From a bacterium (lineage in GTDB: Bacteria > Patescibacteriota > Minisyncoccia > UBA6257 > JAGOQP01): a DNA stretch of 64,000 bases. Below, one piece after another: positions 2,789-57,722 of this stretch. The position numbers were made by a program, and so were the translations under genes. The DNA lies in NCBI GenBank assembly GCA_021801825.1, contig JAJYXK010000007.1, forward strand, positions 24,509 through 88,508, read 5' to 3'. The notes beneath the pieces are model-generated. The model worked only from the letters and a program-made list of their open reading frames with translations, ran no database searches and was not told the origin of the DNA. Position 1 is the stretch's first letter; the number at the start of each line of letters is the position of its first letter.

Positions 2789-6168
<3,380 letters not shown>

Positions 6169-53385: not shown

Positions 53386-54117
53386 ATGAAAAATCCATGT
53401 ATTGTGTGTAATTGGAAAATGAATCCCGCTTCTCAAAAAGAGGCCGCTGCGCTTGCTCGAGAAATAACGCGTGCGGCAAAATCAAAAAAAGGCGAGGTTA
53501 TTATTGCTCCACCAGCAATCTACCTATCGACCGTTAAGAATGAACACACCCATGTTGCATTACAAGATGTGTCGGAATACGCCAAAGGGGCTCACACCGG
53601 ATCAATTTCTGCATCTATGGCAAAGAATATGGGGGCCTCGTATGTTATTGTGGGTCATTCCGAGAGACGGAGAGAACAACACGAAACAAATGAACAGATA
53701 GCACAAAAGATTGAACGCGCGTATGAAGCAAAATTAACTCCCATTATATGTGTGGGAGAATTAAAAAAAGAAACCCCTGAGCGTGCGTGGGGGAAAATAA
53801 AAAAGCAATTAGATGAAATTATCCCATCCCTTAAAAAGGGAAAAGGGGTTATTGCGTATGAACCTGTGTGGGCGATTGGAGGTGATAAAAAAACTGATAG
53901 CGCCTACGCGCAGGCAATGATGTATCGCATTAAATTATATATACGGATGCAGGCGCAACTTATAACGCCAATTCTTTATGGAGGAAGTGTCAATTGTAAA
54001 AACATAGAAGATTTCTTAGAATATAAAGACAGCATAGACGGATTTCTTGTCGGATCCGCTAGTGCGCAAAAAAAAGAAATAACAACATTAATAAAAAAAA
54101 TTTATGGATCTTATTAA
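53386..54117 (+). CDS. tpiA: Triosephosphate isomerase
   Basis: NWKMN, VIVGHSERR, AYEPVWAIG. Confidence 0.85.
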   Translation: MKNPCIVCNWKMNPASQKEAAALAREITRAAKSKKGEVIIAPPAIYLSTVKNEHTHVALQDVSEYAKGAHTGSISASMAKNMGASYVIVGHSERRREQHETNEQIAQKIERAYEAKLTPIICVGELKKETPERAWGKIKKQLDEIIPSLKKGKGVIAYEPVWAIGGDKKTDSAYAQAMMYRIKLYIRMQAQLITPILYGGSVNCKNIEDFLEYKDSIDGFLVGSASAQKKEITTLIKKIYGSY

Positions 54118-54943
54118 AGAAAAGAAAGCTCTCTTAGGAGCATTAACTGGATTGGCAGGAGTCGCCATTGTGGTATTGTTGTACATAATGTTCTGGGGAG
54201 TGTTAGAACCGCAAGAACAGTTTCCGGCGCGTAATATCTCGGTATCAGCGACGGGTAAAGCGGTTGCTAAACCAGATATTGCTGTGACTTCGTTTTCGGT
54301 AGTTTCAGAGGGGACGGACATAAAAGCAATTTCTGATCAGAATAACGAGACGATTGGTAAGGCGGTATCTTTTTTGAAAGAAAAAGGAATTGATGAAAAA
54401 GATATACAAACCGTAGAGTACAATTTATCTCCCGTGTATTCTCAAAAGACATACGCGCCATCAGCAATCTTATCTACTCCGTCGGTAAATATGCGTACGC
54501 AACCAGTTAGTGCTCCTGTTATAGAAACGACTACTGCTCCGACCATTGTAAAATATTCTCTGACGCAGACGGTCCGTGTAAAAATTCGTGATTTTACTAA
54601 AACATCAGAAATTATTGGTGCCCTTGCTCCTATGGGAATCAATAAAGTAAGTCAAATTTCGTTTGGTATTGATGATCCTGAGGTATATAGGGCACAAGCG
54701 CGCGCGGAGGCTATAGAAAAAGCAAAAGCGAAAGCTCAGGTAATGGCACAGCAACTTGGCGTATCTCTTGGTCATTTGGTAAGTATTTCAGAATATGCGC
54801 AGGATAGTGGTTATCAACCAATGATGTCTGCGGTAAAAAGCATGGGGGGATATAGCGAAATAGCGGCTCCGGTGGCCCCCTCTATTGAAGCAGGAAGTCA
54901 AGAGGTTGTGGTAAACGCAAATATCACTTACGAAATTAAATAG
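54104..54943 (+). CDS. SIMPL/DUF541-domain secreted protein
   Basis: N-terminal TM/signal; domain architecture and C-terminal VVVNANITYEI typical of SIMPL family (from memory). Confidence 0.5.
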   Translation: MDLIKEKKALLGALTGLAGVAIVVLLYIMFWGVLEPQEQFPARNISVSATGKAVAKPDIAVTSFSVVSEGTDIKAISDQNNETIGKAVSFLKEKGIDEKDIQTVEYNLSPVYSQKTYAPSAILSTPSVNMRTQPVSAPVIETTTAPTIVKYSLTQTVRVKIRDFTKTSEIIGALAPMGINKVSQISFGIDDPEVYRAQARAEAIEKAKAKAQVMAQQLGVSLGHLVSISEYAQDSGYQPMMSAVKSMGGYSEIAAPVAPSIEAGSQEVVVNANITYEIK

Positions 54944-54955
54944 TTTTGTCATTAT

Positions 54956-55192
54956 ATGAATCTGTCACGCAAAAAGAGACGATGGGTTTCTATTGGAGTC
55001 GGTGTTATTGGATTAGTTACTATTGTGGGATTATCTGATTTGCTCTTTCTTATTCCAAGAGAAGAAACGATCCCAACGCCAACGATTGAGTCTGAGGTGG
55101 TTACCACCACCCCTAATGAGATAAACGTTCCTCTTACTATTCCGACAACCACTACCTCAACCCAAAAAACGGAGAATGAGTTTAAGTTATAG
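54956..55192 (+). CDS. Small membrane-anchored Thr-rich protein
   Basis: ORF track; TM WVSIGVGVIGLVTIVGL. Confidence 0.3.
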   Translation: MNLSRKKRRWVSIGVGVIGLVTIVGLSDLLFLIPREETIPTPTIESEVVTTTPNEINVPLTIPTTTTSTQKTENEFKL

Positions 55193-55199
55193 ATATAAG

Positions 55200-55275
55200 G
55201 TGACCCCGATAGTAGAAGCGAGCGCATTTCATGTATAACCGCTTCGCGGCAAGCTTGCTTCACTACGGGGTTCAA
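55200..55275. repeat. GC-rich hairpin element D (gaccccg...cggggtt outer stem; gaagcgagcgc / ccgcttcgcgg; palindrome gcaagcttgc)
   Basis: Contains CGCTTCG/GAAGCG motif pair of the CGAAGCGGG family. Confidence 0.5.
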
Positions 55276-55301
55276 GTGCGTATGTCTAAAACATACGCAC
55301 T
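55275..55301 (+). other. Perfect 10-bp hairpin agtgcgtatg-N7-catacgcact immediately upstream of promoter
   Basis: Read directly. Confidence 0.5.
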
Positions 55302-55328
55302 TGACTTTTGAAAAAATAGGAGTATAAT
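55301..55328 (+). promoter_or_regulatory. Sigma70-type promoter TTGACT-N16-TATAAT
   Basis: ttgacttttgaaaaaataggagtataat. Confidence 0.5.
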
Positions 55329-55334
55329 GCAAAT

Positions 55335-55425
55335 ATTGAGTGAGTTGATTTTGCCCATATTATTATAGGGGACAAAATTACCTCTTTTTCTCCGCCACCC
55401 AGCAATGGGTGGCGGAGTTTTTATT
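55335..55425 (+). ncRNA. Candidate ~90-nt small RNA delimited by consensus promoter and perfect 11-bp terminator (ctccgccaccc-agcaat-gggtggcggag + T5ATTT)
   Basis: No ORF longer than 15 codons inside. Confidence 0.35.
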
Positions 55426-55480
55426 TGCATGTTGATTAATTTTATGGTATAAAAATTGTAGAACATTTTTGGAGTCAAAC

Positions 55481-55615
55481 ATGAAAACGACTATAAAATA
55501 TAACGAACCAAGATGGGTCAGATTTTTAGGGAACCATCCGCTCTCTCTTCTGATTCCGATTACGGTAATTCCCACTGTTATTTATGTTGTTATAGGGTTT
55601 TCGGCGGCCCTATAG
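55481..55615 (+). CDS. Small hydrophobic peptide (44 aa) with RBS ggag and downstream terminator
   Basis: MKTTIKYNEPRWVRFLGNHPLSLLIPITVIPTVIYVVIGFSAAL*. Confidence 0.35.
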   Translation: MKTTIKYNEPRWVRFLGNHPLSLLIPITVIPTVIYVVIGFSAAL

Positions 55616-55621
55616 CACAGA

Positions 55622-55676
55622 CCCCCTCCTCCCTTGATCCGCGTGTTTCTTGCGGAAGCGGGGAGGCTTTTTATTA
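55622..55676 (+). terminator. GC-rich terminator-like hairpin(s) + T5 (ccgc-N9-gcgg, aagcggggagg motif) = family element E
   Basis: cccctcctcccttgatccgcgtgtttcttgcggaagcggggaggcttttt. Confidence 0.4.
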
Positions 55677-55719
55677 TAGTTGCTATTTATGGTGGGGGAT
55701 TTATACTCATAACATCTGT

Positions 55720-56625
55720 ATGCCAAAGAAAAAAAATATTGAAATATCCAAAGGAGCAGTTTTATACGGATATGATGAAATTGTTCAATCTTTAAAAAAA
55801 CTCGCAGATGATAGGCGGCTTTCTCATACCTATATTTTTTTTGGAGAACCGCAGGTTGGCAAATTTTTGTGCGCAAAAACACTCGCTAACTATCTTGAAA
55901 AAGGAGTGTGGGTGGAACCAGTGCATACACTACAAGAAACGCTTATAGTTGACATGACGCAACAAGAGGATGATTCTGAAGAGTCGGCGGAGAGTATTGG
56001 TATCGCAACCGCTCGTCGCGTAGCTTATTTTTTACATCAACAACCGGCCCTTTCTCCTTATAGAGTGGTTATTATTCGTGATGGGGAATGGCTTACTGAT
56101 CAAGCCCAGAACGCATTATTAAAAACACTTGAAGAGCCTCCGGAGCATAGTGTGATTATTCTTATTGCTACTGATAGCAGCGCATTTTTGCCCGCAGTTG
56201 CCTCTCGGGCGCAAAAAATCTACTTCAAAACGCTCTCAAATGAACAGATGCTTGACTTTTGCGATAGGAGTGGTATAATAAAAGACACAAACTTAGTACA
56301 AAAGTCTTTTGGAAGAATAGGTCGTTTACAGTCTCTTTTGGAGCCACAAAAAAACAGCGAAGTTATTGATCGCTTGGTGCGAGACATATGCACTCCCCAA
56401 ACATCGGATATGGCGCGAGAAAAATTGGTTGATGCGATTATCGCATTTGATCAAAAAAATCCTCATAACCTACCGGCGTTACAAGAGGCGCTTATGATGG
56501 AATTCTATACTCAGAAAAAATATTATTATGCTCTCAAAGAGATACTACAACTTATTACCAACACACAGACTTTGACGCTAAGTAAGCGAATTCATCTAAA
56601 AAAACTACTATGTCTGATAAATTAA
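55720..56625 (+). CDS. holB: DNA polymerase III delta-prime subunit (clamp-loader)
   Basis: P-loop-like FFGEPQVGKF, NALLKTLEEPP; ORF 55513..56625 trimmed to Met70. Confidence 0.7.
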   Translation: MPKKKNIEISKGAVLYGYDEIVQSLKKLADDRRLSHTYIFFGEPQVGKFLCAKTLANYLEKGVWVEPVHTLQETLIVDMTQQEDDSEESAESIGIATARRVAYFLHQQPALSPYRVVIIRDGEWLTDQAQNALLKTLEEPPEHSVIILIATDSSAFLPAVASRAQKIYFKTLSNEQMLDFCDRSGIIKDTNLVQKSFGRIGRLQSLLEPQKNSEVIDRLVRDICTPQTSDMAREKLVDAIIAFDQKNPHNLPALQEALMMEFYTQKKYYYALKEILQLITNTQTLTLSKRIHLKKLLCLIN

Positions 56626-57722
56626 TTTTTACTTTAATGTTGGGTATCTCCGTTATAGGCGCATACATAGGTATATCGGGAGTATCAAGCGCGTTGGGTG
56701 CTTCATTTGATGTGGGTGATTTAGCCCCCTCACTTTCTTCAGGGGCTTCTATTGGAGCGGGGAGTGGATTTCTTGCTTCTGCGGCGTCAGTTATTGGTGG
56801 AGCTTCTTCACATGAAGCAAGCCACTTTCTTATTTCATTTGATTCATTGAAAAATGTACACCAAGCAACCATCAGCGCTCAAGAAGGAGGATTAAGAATA
56901 TATGATGTTGATGTTGCTACACACACAGCTCCTGAAACTATAATTATTTCCACCAACAAGGGATTATATTACAGCAATAACACTGGTCTTACCTGGCACA
57001 TAGTTACTTCTGCAAAAGGAGAAATAAATGAAAATAGTGTTATCTTGCGAGTTATTCCTGCGGAAAATAATGCGTATATAGTGTCGGTGTTTCAAAATGG
57101 GATCGGATCGGTGTATTACACGCAAGACATGTTTAAAACGATGAAACGTTTGGTTTATTTCACTGACGAGGGAGTATATGACATGGCCTTGTATGGAAAT
57201 ACTCTTTATTTAGGTATGTCAAATGGACAATTGATTCAATATGACAGAACAAAAGAAACGTTTACGGTGGTACGCACGTTTCCTTCTCCCGTAGTACGAT
57301 TTTATGATAACGGAGACGGATTCTTTTATGCATTTTTGAAATCAGGAACTCTTATGCAGGCAGTTGGTCCCATGGGAGACTTTGGTAAAATTAAAGTAGG
57401 TGGAGGATGGTTTTCTTCGGGAACTATTAGAAATGTTGGATTTGCTTCATCGGGCGATATGTACGTGTTAGGAAAAGATGGGGTGTATAAAAGTGAAAAT
57501 TATGGAGTAACGTTTGATTTGATAGATAATATTCCATTACTTAAAAAACAAATTGACGCGCTCGCGGTTTTGGGAAACACCGTATATGTCATATCCGACG
57601 GACGCATGTATGTAAGCTCAGACAGTGGTAAGAGTTGGAAACTGCAAGACAACATTCCGCTTGATTTTATAGTAAATCAATTCTACTTCTTAGGAGGAGG
57701 ACGAGTGATATTGAGTGAATAG
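56610..57722 (+). CDS. Secreted BNR/beta-propeller-like protein
   Basis: Signal/TM N-terminus; Gly/Ser/Ala low-complexity; SDSGKSW BNR-type repeat. Confidence 0.5.
   Translation: MSDKLIFTLMLGISVIGAYIGISGVSSALGASFDVGDLAPSLSSGASIGAGSGFLASAASVIGGASSHEASHFLISFDSLKNVHQATISAQEGGLRIYDVDVATHTAPETIIISTNKGLYYSNNTGLTWHIVTSAKGEINENSVILRVIPAENNAYIVSVFQNGIGSVYYTQDMFKTMKRLVYFTDEGVYDMALYGNTLYLGMSNGQLIQYDRTKETFTVVRTFPSPVVRFYDNGDGFFYAFLKSGTLMQAVGPMGDFGKIKVGGGWFSSGTIRNVGFASSGDMYVLGKDGVYKSENYGVTFDLIDNIPLLKKQIDALAVLGNTVYVISDGRMYVSSDSGKSWKLQDNIPLDFIVNQFYFLGGGRVILSE

Follow-up and report, generated by a model that had tools for sequence, protein, structure and literature searches.

Does the short interval upstream of holB in a stretch of Patescibacteriota DNA encode a small RNA (sRNA) of its own and, if so, how might this RNA act? 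The stretch, 64,000 nucleotides of contig JAJYXK010000007.1 (assembly GCA_021801825.1, positions 24,509 to 88,508), is referred to here as the window, and positions are counted from its first letter. A preliminary description, made from the letters alone, had proposed an independent sRNA at about 55335..55425, reaching from a TTGACT-N16-TATAAT promoter to a perfect 11-bp terminator and followed by a separate small-peptide gene. Small RNAs of this promoter-to-terminator kind are well known in bacteria and are to be expected there. Comparison with eight other genomes makes us highly confident that positions 55334–55426 of the + strand form a real, independent non-coding RNA gene, and we infer from the sequences that a discrete RNA is transcribed from it. 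Its independence is supported by invariant promoter hexamers, covarying stems, the lack of a shared reading frame and of an antiterminator, and a poorly conserved spacer between the RNA and the peptide gene. For a purely computational candidate, the comparative support is unusually good.

The RNA gene and its conservation

The proposed promoter is present (Table 1). Its -35 element is extended as cTTGACTTTT, and its 16-nt spacer is A-rich, with AGGAG at the end. A consensus scan of positions 54000–57000 returns only two sites that score 11/12, this promoter being one of them, and it is also among the six TTGACN-N15-18-TANAAT sites of the whole 64 kb. Promoter-like sites in the region number 13, against 8.1 ± 2.5 expected. 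This count alone is not significant, so the case for an sRNA rests on the comparison with other genomes.

A genome scan with HolB returned relatives labelled "bacterium" (75% identity) and "Candidatus Paceibacterota bacterium" (69%); a protein search then yielded HolB relatives at graded levels of similarity, and the DNA around eleven of them was retrieved. Eight further Paceibacterota-like genomes, with HolB 50–75% identical, carry the promoter-hairpin-terminator unit in syntenic position; where single loci have to be told apart, they are given as L001, L002 and so on. The gene order in the eight genomes is tpiA, a SIMPL-domain gene, a gene of 70–100 amino acids, the intergenic region, a membrane-peptide gene of 32–52 amino acids, holB and a BNR/sortilin-like gene. 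In four more distant relatives (HolB 47–48% identical), mreB lies directly upstream of holB, no peptide gene is found there, and a covariance model of the RNA has no match within 3–10 kb. Identity to the window is 73–92% for promoter plus sRNA, 18–63% for the downstream spacer and about 50–58% for the peptide-gene DNA, the coordinates of some peptide genes being approximate. In the window the covariance model detects one copy and no paralogues, even with filters off, and BLAST searches of phage and plasmid collections return no copies. Two pattern matches in viral contigs were dismissed as chance, the covariance model confirming neither. A scan of JGI metagenomes for the pattern TTGAGTGA..TTATTATAGG..CTTTTTC found only the L002 contig again and a chance match, L007, which was rejected because it lacks a promoter and a terminator and lies in a foreign context. 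Judged from these searches, the sRNA family is limited to a narrow Paceibacterota clade.

In the alignment of the nine genomes, the -35 element with its T-run (TTGACTTTT) and the end of the spacer with the -10 element (GAGTATAAT) are invariant. A promoter of its own, as belongs to an independent sRNA gene, is thus conserved as such in all nine. The discriminator that follows, 5–7 nt between the -10 element and TATTGAGTGA, differs in nearly every one of the nine, and TATTGAGTGA itself, the 5′ tail of the RNA, is again invariant (9/9). Because the hexamers are invariant, the next 5–7 nt vary and the conserved RNA then begins, transcription is predicted to start at about 55334–55336, in keeping with the distance from the -10 element. 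A variable discriminator followed by a frozen TATTGAGTGA points to selection on the RNA sequence, not on the DNA just upstream.

The predicted RNA consists of this single-stranded tail, a first hairpin with a conserved apical loop, a U-rich linker and the terminator. Taken as 8–10 nt, the tail (UAUUGAGUGA) is invariant or nearly so, as are the promoter hexamers, the loop and the linker. It is unpaired in the minimum free energy fold of eight of the nine homologues; in L004 it is partly paired in that fold and free in the centroid. The stem of hairpin 1, predicted independently in each homologue, measures about 12–17 bp on manual inspection. Its apical loop is identical in eight genomes and carries a single-base insertion in L003; the loop is conserved as ATATTATTATAGG, and TATTATTATAGG is present in every one of the nine aligned sequences, with one base more in L003. 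The linker is kept as C-U(4-6)-C in 9/9 genomes, conserved but not invariant. The terminator arms CTCCGCCACCCA and TGGGTGGCGGAG (55390–55417) form 12 perfect pairs, nine of them G-C, around a GCAA tetraloop, and are followed by TTTTTATTT. The terminator claimed earlier is therefore there and is perfect, with 12 pairs instead of 11, although drawing it as 11 bp with a 6-nt loop is equivalent. All nine genomes have a G-C-rich terminator of 12–14 bp with a U-run (U5-6 across the homologues). The predicted 94-nt transcript folds with -41.6 kcal/mol, compared with -18.7 ± 3.3 kcal/mol for dinucleotide shuffles (z = -7). When folded alone, each homologue yields hairpin 1, a 4–6-nt U linker, the terminator and a U-tail, with z values of -6 to -8.

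The preliminary description had suggested looking for homologues with compensatory changes, and the eight other genomes supply them. RNAalifold, run on the raw MAFFT alignment, predicts both hairpins with 13 doubly changed pairs. A covariance model was also built, the nine sequences were realigned to it and pairs were then counted: standard pairs occupy 94.9% of the cells and 13 of 20 pairs are changed on both sides, figures that come from only nine sequences, some closely related, in an alignment fitted by the model. No column shuffle (0/500) reaches the observed covariation on any measure, and sliding the 3′ partners by 1–3 columns as a control leaves 46–58% paired cells and 0–5 covarying pairs. 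Both-sided changes affect 7/11 pairs of helices 1 and 2 (helix 2 is 98.6% paired) and 6/9 pairs of helices 3 and 4, which form the terminator and in which L002 shows a G-C to A-U replacement. Hairpin 1 occurs in several compensated versions, UGAUUUUGCCC/GGG-A-CAAAAUUA in the window, AAUUUAUCU/AGAUAAAUU in L004, UGAUUUGUUUGU/ACAAACAAGUUA in L009 and GUAUGUGCCUGC/GCAGGCAUAUG in L010, and its base changes from GAG/CUC in the window to GAAGU/ACUUC in L005 and L010. The RNA is assigned to the + strand because 12 G-U cells would become A-C mismatches on the opposite one. An RNA from the minus strand is ruled out by these G-U pairs and by the orientation of promoter and U-run.

The interval is also non-coding, as had been claimed: no + strand open reading frame (ORF) of at least 25 amino acids lies between promoter and terminator in the window. 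The distance from tail to loop is 13, 16, 17 or 18 nt depending on the genome (16–18 nt in eight of the nine, 13 nt in L004). Since insertions and deletions in the stem put the conserved segments in different frames, no ORF is conserved. Small ORFs, such as the TTG-initiated MSELILPILL of the window, were rejected because the frame differs between homologues. As the stems vary under the constraint of pairing only and the tail, loop and U-linker are frozen, the single-stranded parts would be the functional surfaces.

At gathering thresholds, Rfam 15 recognises only rRNA and tRNA in the whole window. A permissive scan of 55150–55750 gives only sub-threshold matches driven by the terminator, the best being RsaJ (21.9 against 100), and the best match of the L010 homologue is PyrR (RF00515; 28.5 bits, E = 0.06, gathering score 54). 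Signal recognition particle RNA, 6S RNA, tmRNA and small riboswitches such as preQ1 were set aside, the Rfam models being silent and the defining motifs absent. Literature searches returned no paper describing any sRNA family or regulatory RNA in the Candidate Phyla Radiation (CPR)/Patescibacteria. As far as Rfam 15 shows, the RNA family is undescribed.

Table 1. Predicted features of the sRNA locus; positions refer to the window unless a homologous locus is named.
Feature	Position	Strand	Description
Upstream hairpin	55272-55304	+	14 perfect pairs, TCAAGTGCGTATGT 55272-55285 / ACATACGCACTTGA 55291-55304; overlaps first 4 nt of -35
sRNA promoter	55301-55328	+	-35 TTGACT 55301-55306, 16-nt spacer, -10 TATAAT 55323-55328; consensus score 11/12
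sRNA gene	55334-55426	+	about 90 nt; predicted from promoter, conserved 5′ end and terminator
5′ tail UAUUGAGU	55334-55341	+	8 nt, single-stranded, invariant
Hairpin 1	55342-55384	+	base GAG/CUC, stem UGAUUUUGCCC / GGG-A-CAAAAUUA, enclosing the conserved loop
Apical loop AUAUUAUUAUAGG	55357-55369	+	13 nt, candidate interaction site
U5 linker	55385-55389	+	between hairpin 1 and terminator
Intrinsic terminator	55390-55426	+	stem 55390-55401 / 55406-55417, GCAA loop, then UUUUUAUUU
Putative peptide-gene promoter TGGTATAAA	55445-55453	+	extended -10-like element; inferred
Membrane-peptide gene	55481-55615	+	44 amino acids, GGAG 6 nt before ATG; separate unit from sRNA
holB-internal promoter-like element, homologue positions	L001 1864, L002 4521, L003 3689, L004 3494, L005 3623, L009 2620, L010 3662		
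holB-internal promoter-like element, further positions	L012 2228, L011 3491, L013 7922, L014 10497, L015 4924		

The surrounding locus

Downstream of the RNA lies the 44-amino-acid hydrophobic-peptide gene of the preliminary description, which has the GGAG ribosome-binding site and the GC-rich, terminator-like hairpin (at about 55628–55666) ascribed to it. Homologous peptides, each with a transmembrane segment and a G-x-H-P-(L/F) motif immediately ahead of it, are encoded in eight of the nine genomes; L004 has a different hydrophobic peptide of 32 amino acids at the same position. The 44-amino-acid peptide has no Pfam match, and a profile search gave five database matches, all from genomes of the same clade that were already in the set. 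The contig of P0121 stops before the position of the sRNA. Within the poorly conserved spacer between the RNA and the peptide gene, the window, L001, L002 and L003 have in common a TGnTATAAA element followed by an A-rich stretch and AGAA, and the promoter-like sites of the other spacers read TTGCAA-N16-TATATT, TTGATT-N16-TATAGT or TTGCAT-N17-TACTAT. The spacer of L005 contains, between sRNA terminator and peptide gene (2345–2470), two long perfect palindromes (ccacacaatgcacgccatggcgtgcattgtgtgg and gtgtatcacaatggccgccatggcggccattgtgatacac) that have the look of an insertion of the repetitive extragenic palindrome or miniature inverted-repeat transposable element (REP/MITE) type.

The gene for the delta′ subunit of DNA polymerase III, holB, starts at 55720 in the window. 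Upstream of it, at 55680–55707, a TTGCTATTTA-N-GATTTATACT element is kept in close relatives and reads TTGCTATAC in L009 and L012; it is probably the holB promoter. With such a promoter, sRNA, peptide gene and holB would form a tandem of three compact transcription units, every one of which has a promoter as well as a terminator-like hairpin.

Inside holB, at 56252–56279 of the window, a near-consensus promoter cTTGACTTTT-N-TGGTATAAT falls within an (L/V/I)DF....G(I/K)I motif of the coding sequence. This promoter-like element is kept in 13/13 genomes examined, including distant ones that do not have the sRNA, and synonymous positions in it are fixed (NTT GAC TTT and GGT ATA AT or GGT AAA AT). 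Probably it serves as an internal promoter for the BNR/sortilin-like gene downstream and for what lies beyond, frr in most loci. The form cTTGACTTTT...TGnTATAAT is common to the sRNA promoter and the element inside holB, which marks cTTGACTTTT...TATAAT as the likely promoter form of this lineage. Where the locus reaches that far, frr, encoding the ribosome recycling factor (RRF), is the next gene downstream of the BNR/sortilin-like gene; L005/L006 have a different gene of 212 amino acids instead. The sequence TATTGAGTGAA, the same as the 5′ tail of the L005 type, occurs in sense at 57709–57719 (+) of the window, where the BNR-like gene reaches its stop codon (...ILSE, then the stop), and also in L005 at about 5076. 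This is probably a coincidence, about one match with at most one mismatch being expected by chance in the window.

On the other side, the preliminary description had a perfect hairpin abutting the -35 element. The hairpin is there, with 14 bp; it overlaps the element by 4 nt instead of abutting it and lies outside the conserved unit, being found in only 3/9 genomes (window, L001 and L003) and absent from L002, L004, L009 and L012. Among its three genomes the stem is fully compensated, in the versions GUGCGUAUG, GUACAUAUG and GUGUACGCG. It is preceded by a 71-nt hairpin, GACCCCGAUAGUAGAAGCGAGC...GCUUGCUUCACUACGGGGUUC, directly after the gene of 78 amino acids (window 55202–55272, L001 at about 865–935, L003 at about 2366–2436). 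The 71-nt hairpin is nearly identical in these three genomes, absent from L002, L004, L009 and L012, present as a single copy in the window and without a match in Rfam; it could belong to the 3′ untranslated region, represent another small RNA or have been inserted. Both upstream hairpins are most likely the 3′ end or terminator of the 78-amino-acid gene transcript and lie outside the conserved sRNA unit. At the position of the 71-nt hairpin, L005 (about 2110–2186) and L010 (about 2340–2472) have longer hairpins, with z = -3.5 and -6.3, each with a terminal U-run. They share a 3′ motif, GCCAAGCUUUAC(C/U)CACCC, that resembles GGCAAGCUUGCUUCAC of the 71-nt element in the window, match no Rfam family and may be a related structured 3′-end element.

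Elsewhere in the window, the 23S rRNA gene (2797–6164) is 3368 bp long, compared with a model of 2925 positions, and contains large insertions, for example one of about 90 nt near model position 312. Such large 23S insertions are frequent in CPR bacteria. The window also carries 5S rRNA and several tRNAs; no 16S gene was detected in its 64 kb.

Mode of action

Many characterised base-pairing sRNAs have the same order of parts: first a free seed, next a hairpin, then a U-rich stretch and finally an intrinsic terminator. Because the layout found here matches these classical sRNAs, base pairing in trans is taken as the likeliest mode of action, one that we propose tentatively and at a little under even confidence. 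The whole statement, that this is a stand-alone non-coding RNA of about 90 nt acting as a classical trans-acting sRNA, we regard as evenly balanced. In such a mechanism, a strong sigma-70-type promoter of its own would drive the RNA and a strong intrinsic terminator of its own would end it. The tail and/or the loop would pair with at least one mRNA from another locus of the genome, altering its translation or stability, and the U-linker and terminator would serve as a putative stability or chaperone-binding module. The frozen tail UAUUGAGU(GA), loop AUAUUAUUAUAGG and U-linker, next to helices in which only pairing is kept, suggest that the unpaired segments contact something in trans. The RNA resembles sRNAs of the RybB, MicA and RyhB type (Proteobacteria) and RoxS/RsaE (Firmicutes) in that it measures about 90 nt and has a promoter and a Rho-independent terminator of its own. 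It shares with classical trans-acting sRNAs the conserved unpaired 5′ end and/or loop, the covarying stems and the U-rich stretch before the terminator. It differs from them in having no sequence or covariance-model similarity, in its conserved loop, which is A/U-rich and not C-rich, and in its host, since this Paceibacterota sRNA is found in the CPR.

Several results weigh against base pairing in trans. Complements of the loop (CCUAUAAUAAUAU) and of the tail (CUCACUCAAUA) do not occur beyond chance in the rRNA, tRNA or translation-initiation regions of the window, where the apical loop itself is the sole exact complement match. Duplex scans of every translation-initiation region in the window gave nothing conserved, and those over about 7 kb around each of the nine loci show no conserved pairing with neighbouring mRNAs, that of the peptide included. 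The target prediction proposed in the preliminary description was thus run on the window and the nine loci and found no conserved site there, the search covering 64 kb (about 5–10%) of one genome and, in each of the others, about 7 kb. The loop is nearly pure A/U, which makes for weak duplexes, and about 30 nt are invariant in three separate segments, more than a simple seed needs and an equally good fit to a protein-binding RNA.

Three other pairings were tried and discarded. Duplex matches recurred in rseP and in the BNR-like gene, where they fall on purine-rich parts of the coding sequence, and are not conserved. An anti-Shine-Dalgarno role of CCUCUUUUUCUCC was rejected, as its CUC is paired in hairpin 1 and its CUCC in the terminator stem, and the sequence reads CUUC/CCAC in L005 and L010. 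Pairing of the linker with the RNA's own promoter spacer relies on an unconserved 9-nt match, confined to L003 and L012.

Among the alternatives, a protein-binding RNA survives best, although we consider it somewhat unlikely. The RNA would be a sponge, a decoy or a component of a ribonucleoprotein (RNP), with tail, loop and U-linker as recognition sites by which it titrates or scaffolds a protein; CsrB/RsmZ and 6S RNA are known protein-binding RNAs that are comparable in principle. The roughly 30 nt in three single-stranded blocks are invariant even though HolB is only about 50% identical, and exceed typical seeds. The tail (UAUUGAG) and the loop (UAUUAUAG) share a UAUU..AG pattern that is possibly a repeated site, no mRNA target was found in the regions searched, and a promoter that is both strong and invariant points to constitutive expression at a high level. 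On the other side, there is no conserved GGA-type CsrA motif, the junction of loop and stem being AGGGG, AGGAG, AGGAC or AGGGC depending on the homologue, and the RNA matches no protein-binding family in Rfam and has no identified partner protein.

A cis-acting 5′ leader or attenuator, in which the terminator would be read through under some condition into the peptide gene and holB, is improbable. The unit does lie immediately upstream of the peptide gene, in the same orientation, in 9/9 genomes, the peptide gene's own promoter is merely consensus-like, and the L010 copy matches the PyrR model weakly (28.5 bits). The distance to the peptide gene, however, ranges from 53 to 265 nt in poorly conserved sequence, with inserted palindromes in L005, and each genome has a promoter-like element in this spacer. 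The terminator is very strong in all homologues, and its arms change without a covarying upstream partner. Because the terminator stem varies freely and nothing upstream covaries with it, there is no conserved antiterminator pairing, and the unit is not a riboswitch or attenuator of that kind. The PyrR match is far below threshold and aligns the generic shape of a hairpin plus terminator, not the PyrR binding loop. The PyrR attenuator (RF00515) is alike in having a hairpin, a U-rich linker and a terminator, and is the weak best match of that one homologue; it differs in that the window copy gives no match and that a PyrR recognition loop, an antiterminator and a downstream pyr gene are lacking here.

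Very improbable, too, is a housekeeping RNA specific to this lineage of CPR bacteria with reduced genomes, either a miniature 6S-like promoter mimic or an obligatory RNP subunit. The three invariant single-stranded blocks, the invariant strong promoter and the lack of a detectable target are compatible with it. As a promoter mimic, the RNA would bind RNA polymerase or sigma through its TTGAGT-like tail and TATTAT loop, held 13–18 nt apart by a helix, and this reading is retained at low probability because tail and loop do resemble -35 and -10 elements (TTGAGT-N13-18-TATTAT). Their order (TTGAGT ... TATTAT) is also a point of likeness to 6S RNA, as are the high conservation and the presumed abundance. 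However, 6S RNA is about 180 nt long and opens into a central bubble that separates two long irregular helices, whereas the present RNA has about 90 nt in two separate hairpins, does not match RF00013, has its -35-like part single-stranded and has a spacing of 13 nt in one homologue.

We give a similarly slight chance to an antitoxin-like or dedicated regulator RNA of the adjacent hydrophobic peptide, that is, a pair resembling a type I toxin-antitoxin system. The sRNA and the membrane-peptide gene of 32–52 amino acids adjoin in 9/9 genomes, the distant relatives have neither of them next to holB, and the GxHP[LF] peptide family is found in this clade only; this co-occurrence may merely reflect one conserved synteny block. 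Type I antitoxins (IstR-1/TisB, Sib/Ibs) are likewise small RNA genes adjoining very small hydrophobic-peptide genes. Here, in contrast, the two genes are in tandem on the same strand and so do not overlap in antisense. The sRNA and the peptide mRNA share no inverted repeat, and the nine genomes show no conserved duplex and no complementarity between them. The GxHP[LF] motif and fixed synteny are more typical of a small housekeeping membrane protein than of a toxin, and L004 keeps the sRNA although its peptide is of a different sequence.

That there is no RNA gene at all, the blocks being DNA signals such as a tandem promoter (TTGAGT-N16-TATTAT, 55336–55363) or a regulator site and the hairpins incidental, is scarcely credible: tail and loop can be read as a 9/12 promoter-like site with a spacing of 16–18 nt in 8/9 genomes, but the compensatory changes and the 12 G-U cells indicate selection on a + strand RNA helix, a transcript from the second promoter would omit the 5′ arm that covaries, and L004 keeps both blocks at 13 nt, a spacing that a promoter does not allow.

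CPR/Patescibacteria are uncultivated, have tiny genomes and possess few recognisable regulators. Taken by itself, a further bacterial sRNA of the promoter-to-terminator kind is to be expected and not surprising. An sRNA from this group with a candidate start, end, structure and interaction surfaces gives metatranscriptomics, and target prediction across metagenome-assembled genomes, something concrete to start from. If its targets or partner were found, they would show how the reduced organisms of the CPR regulate gene expression.

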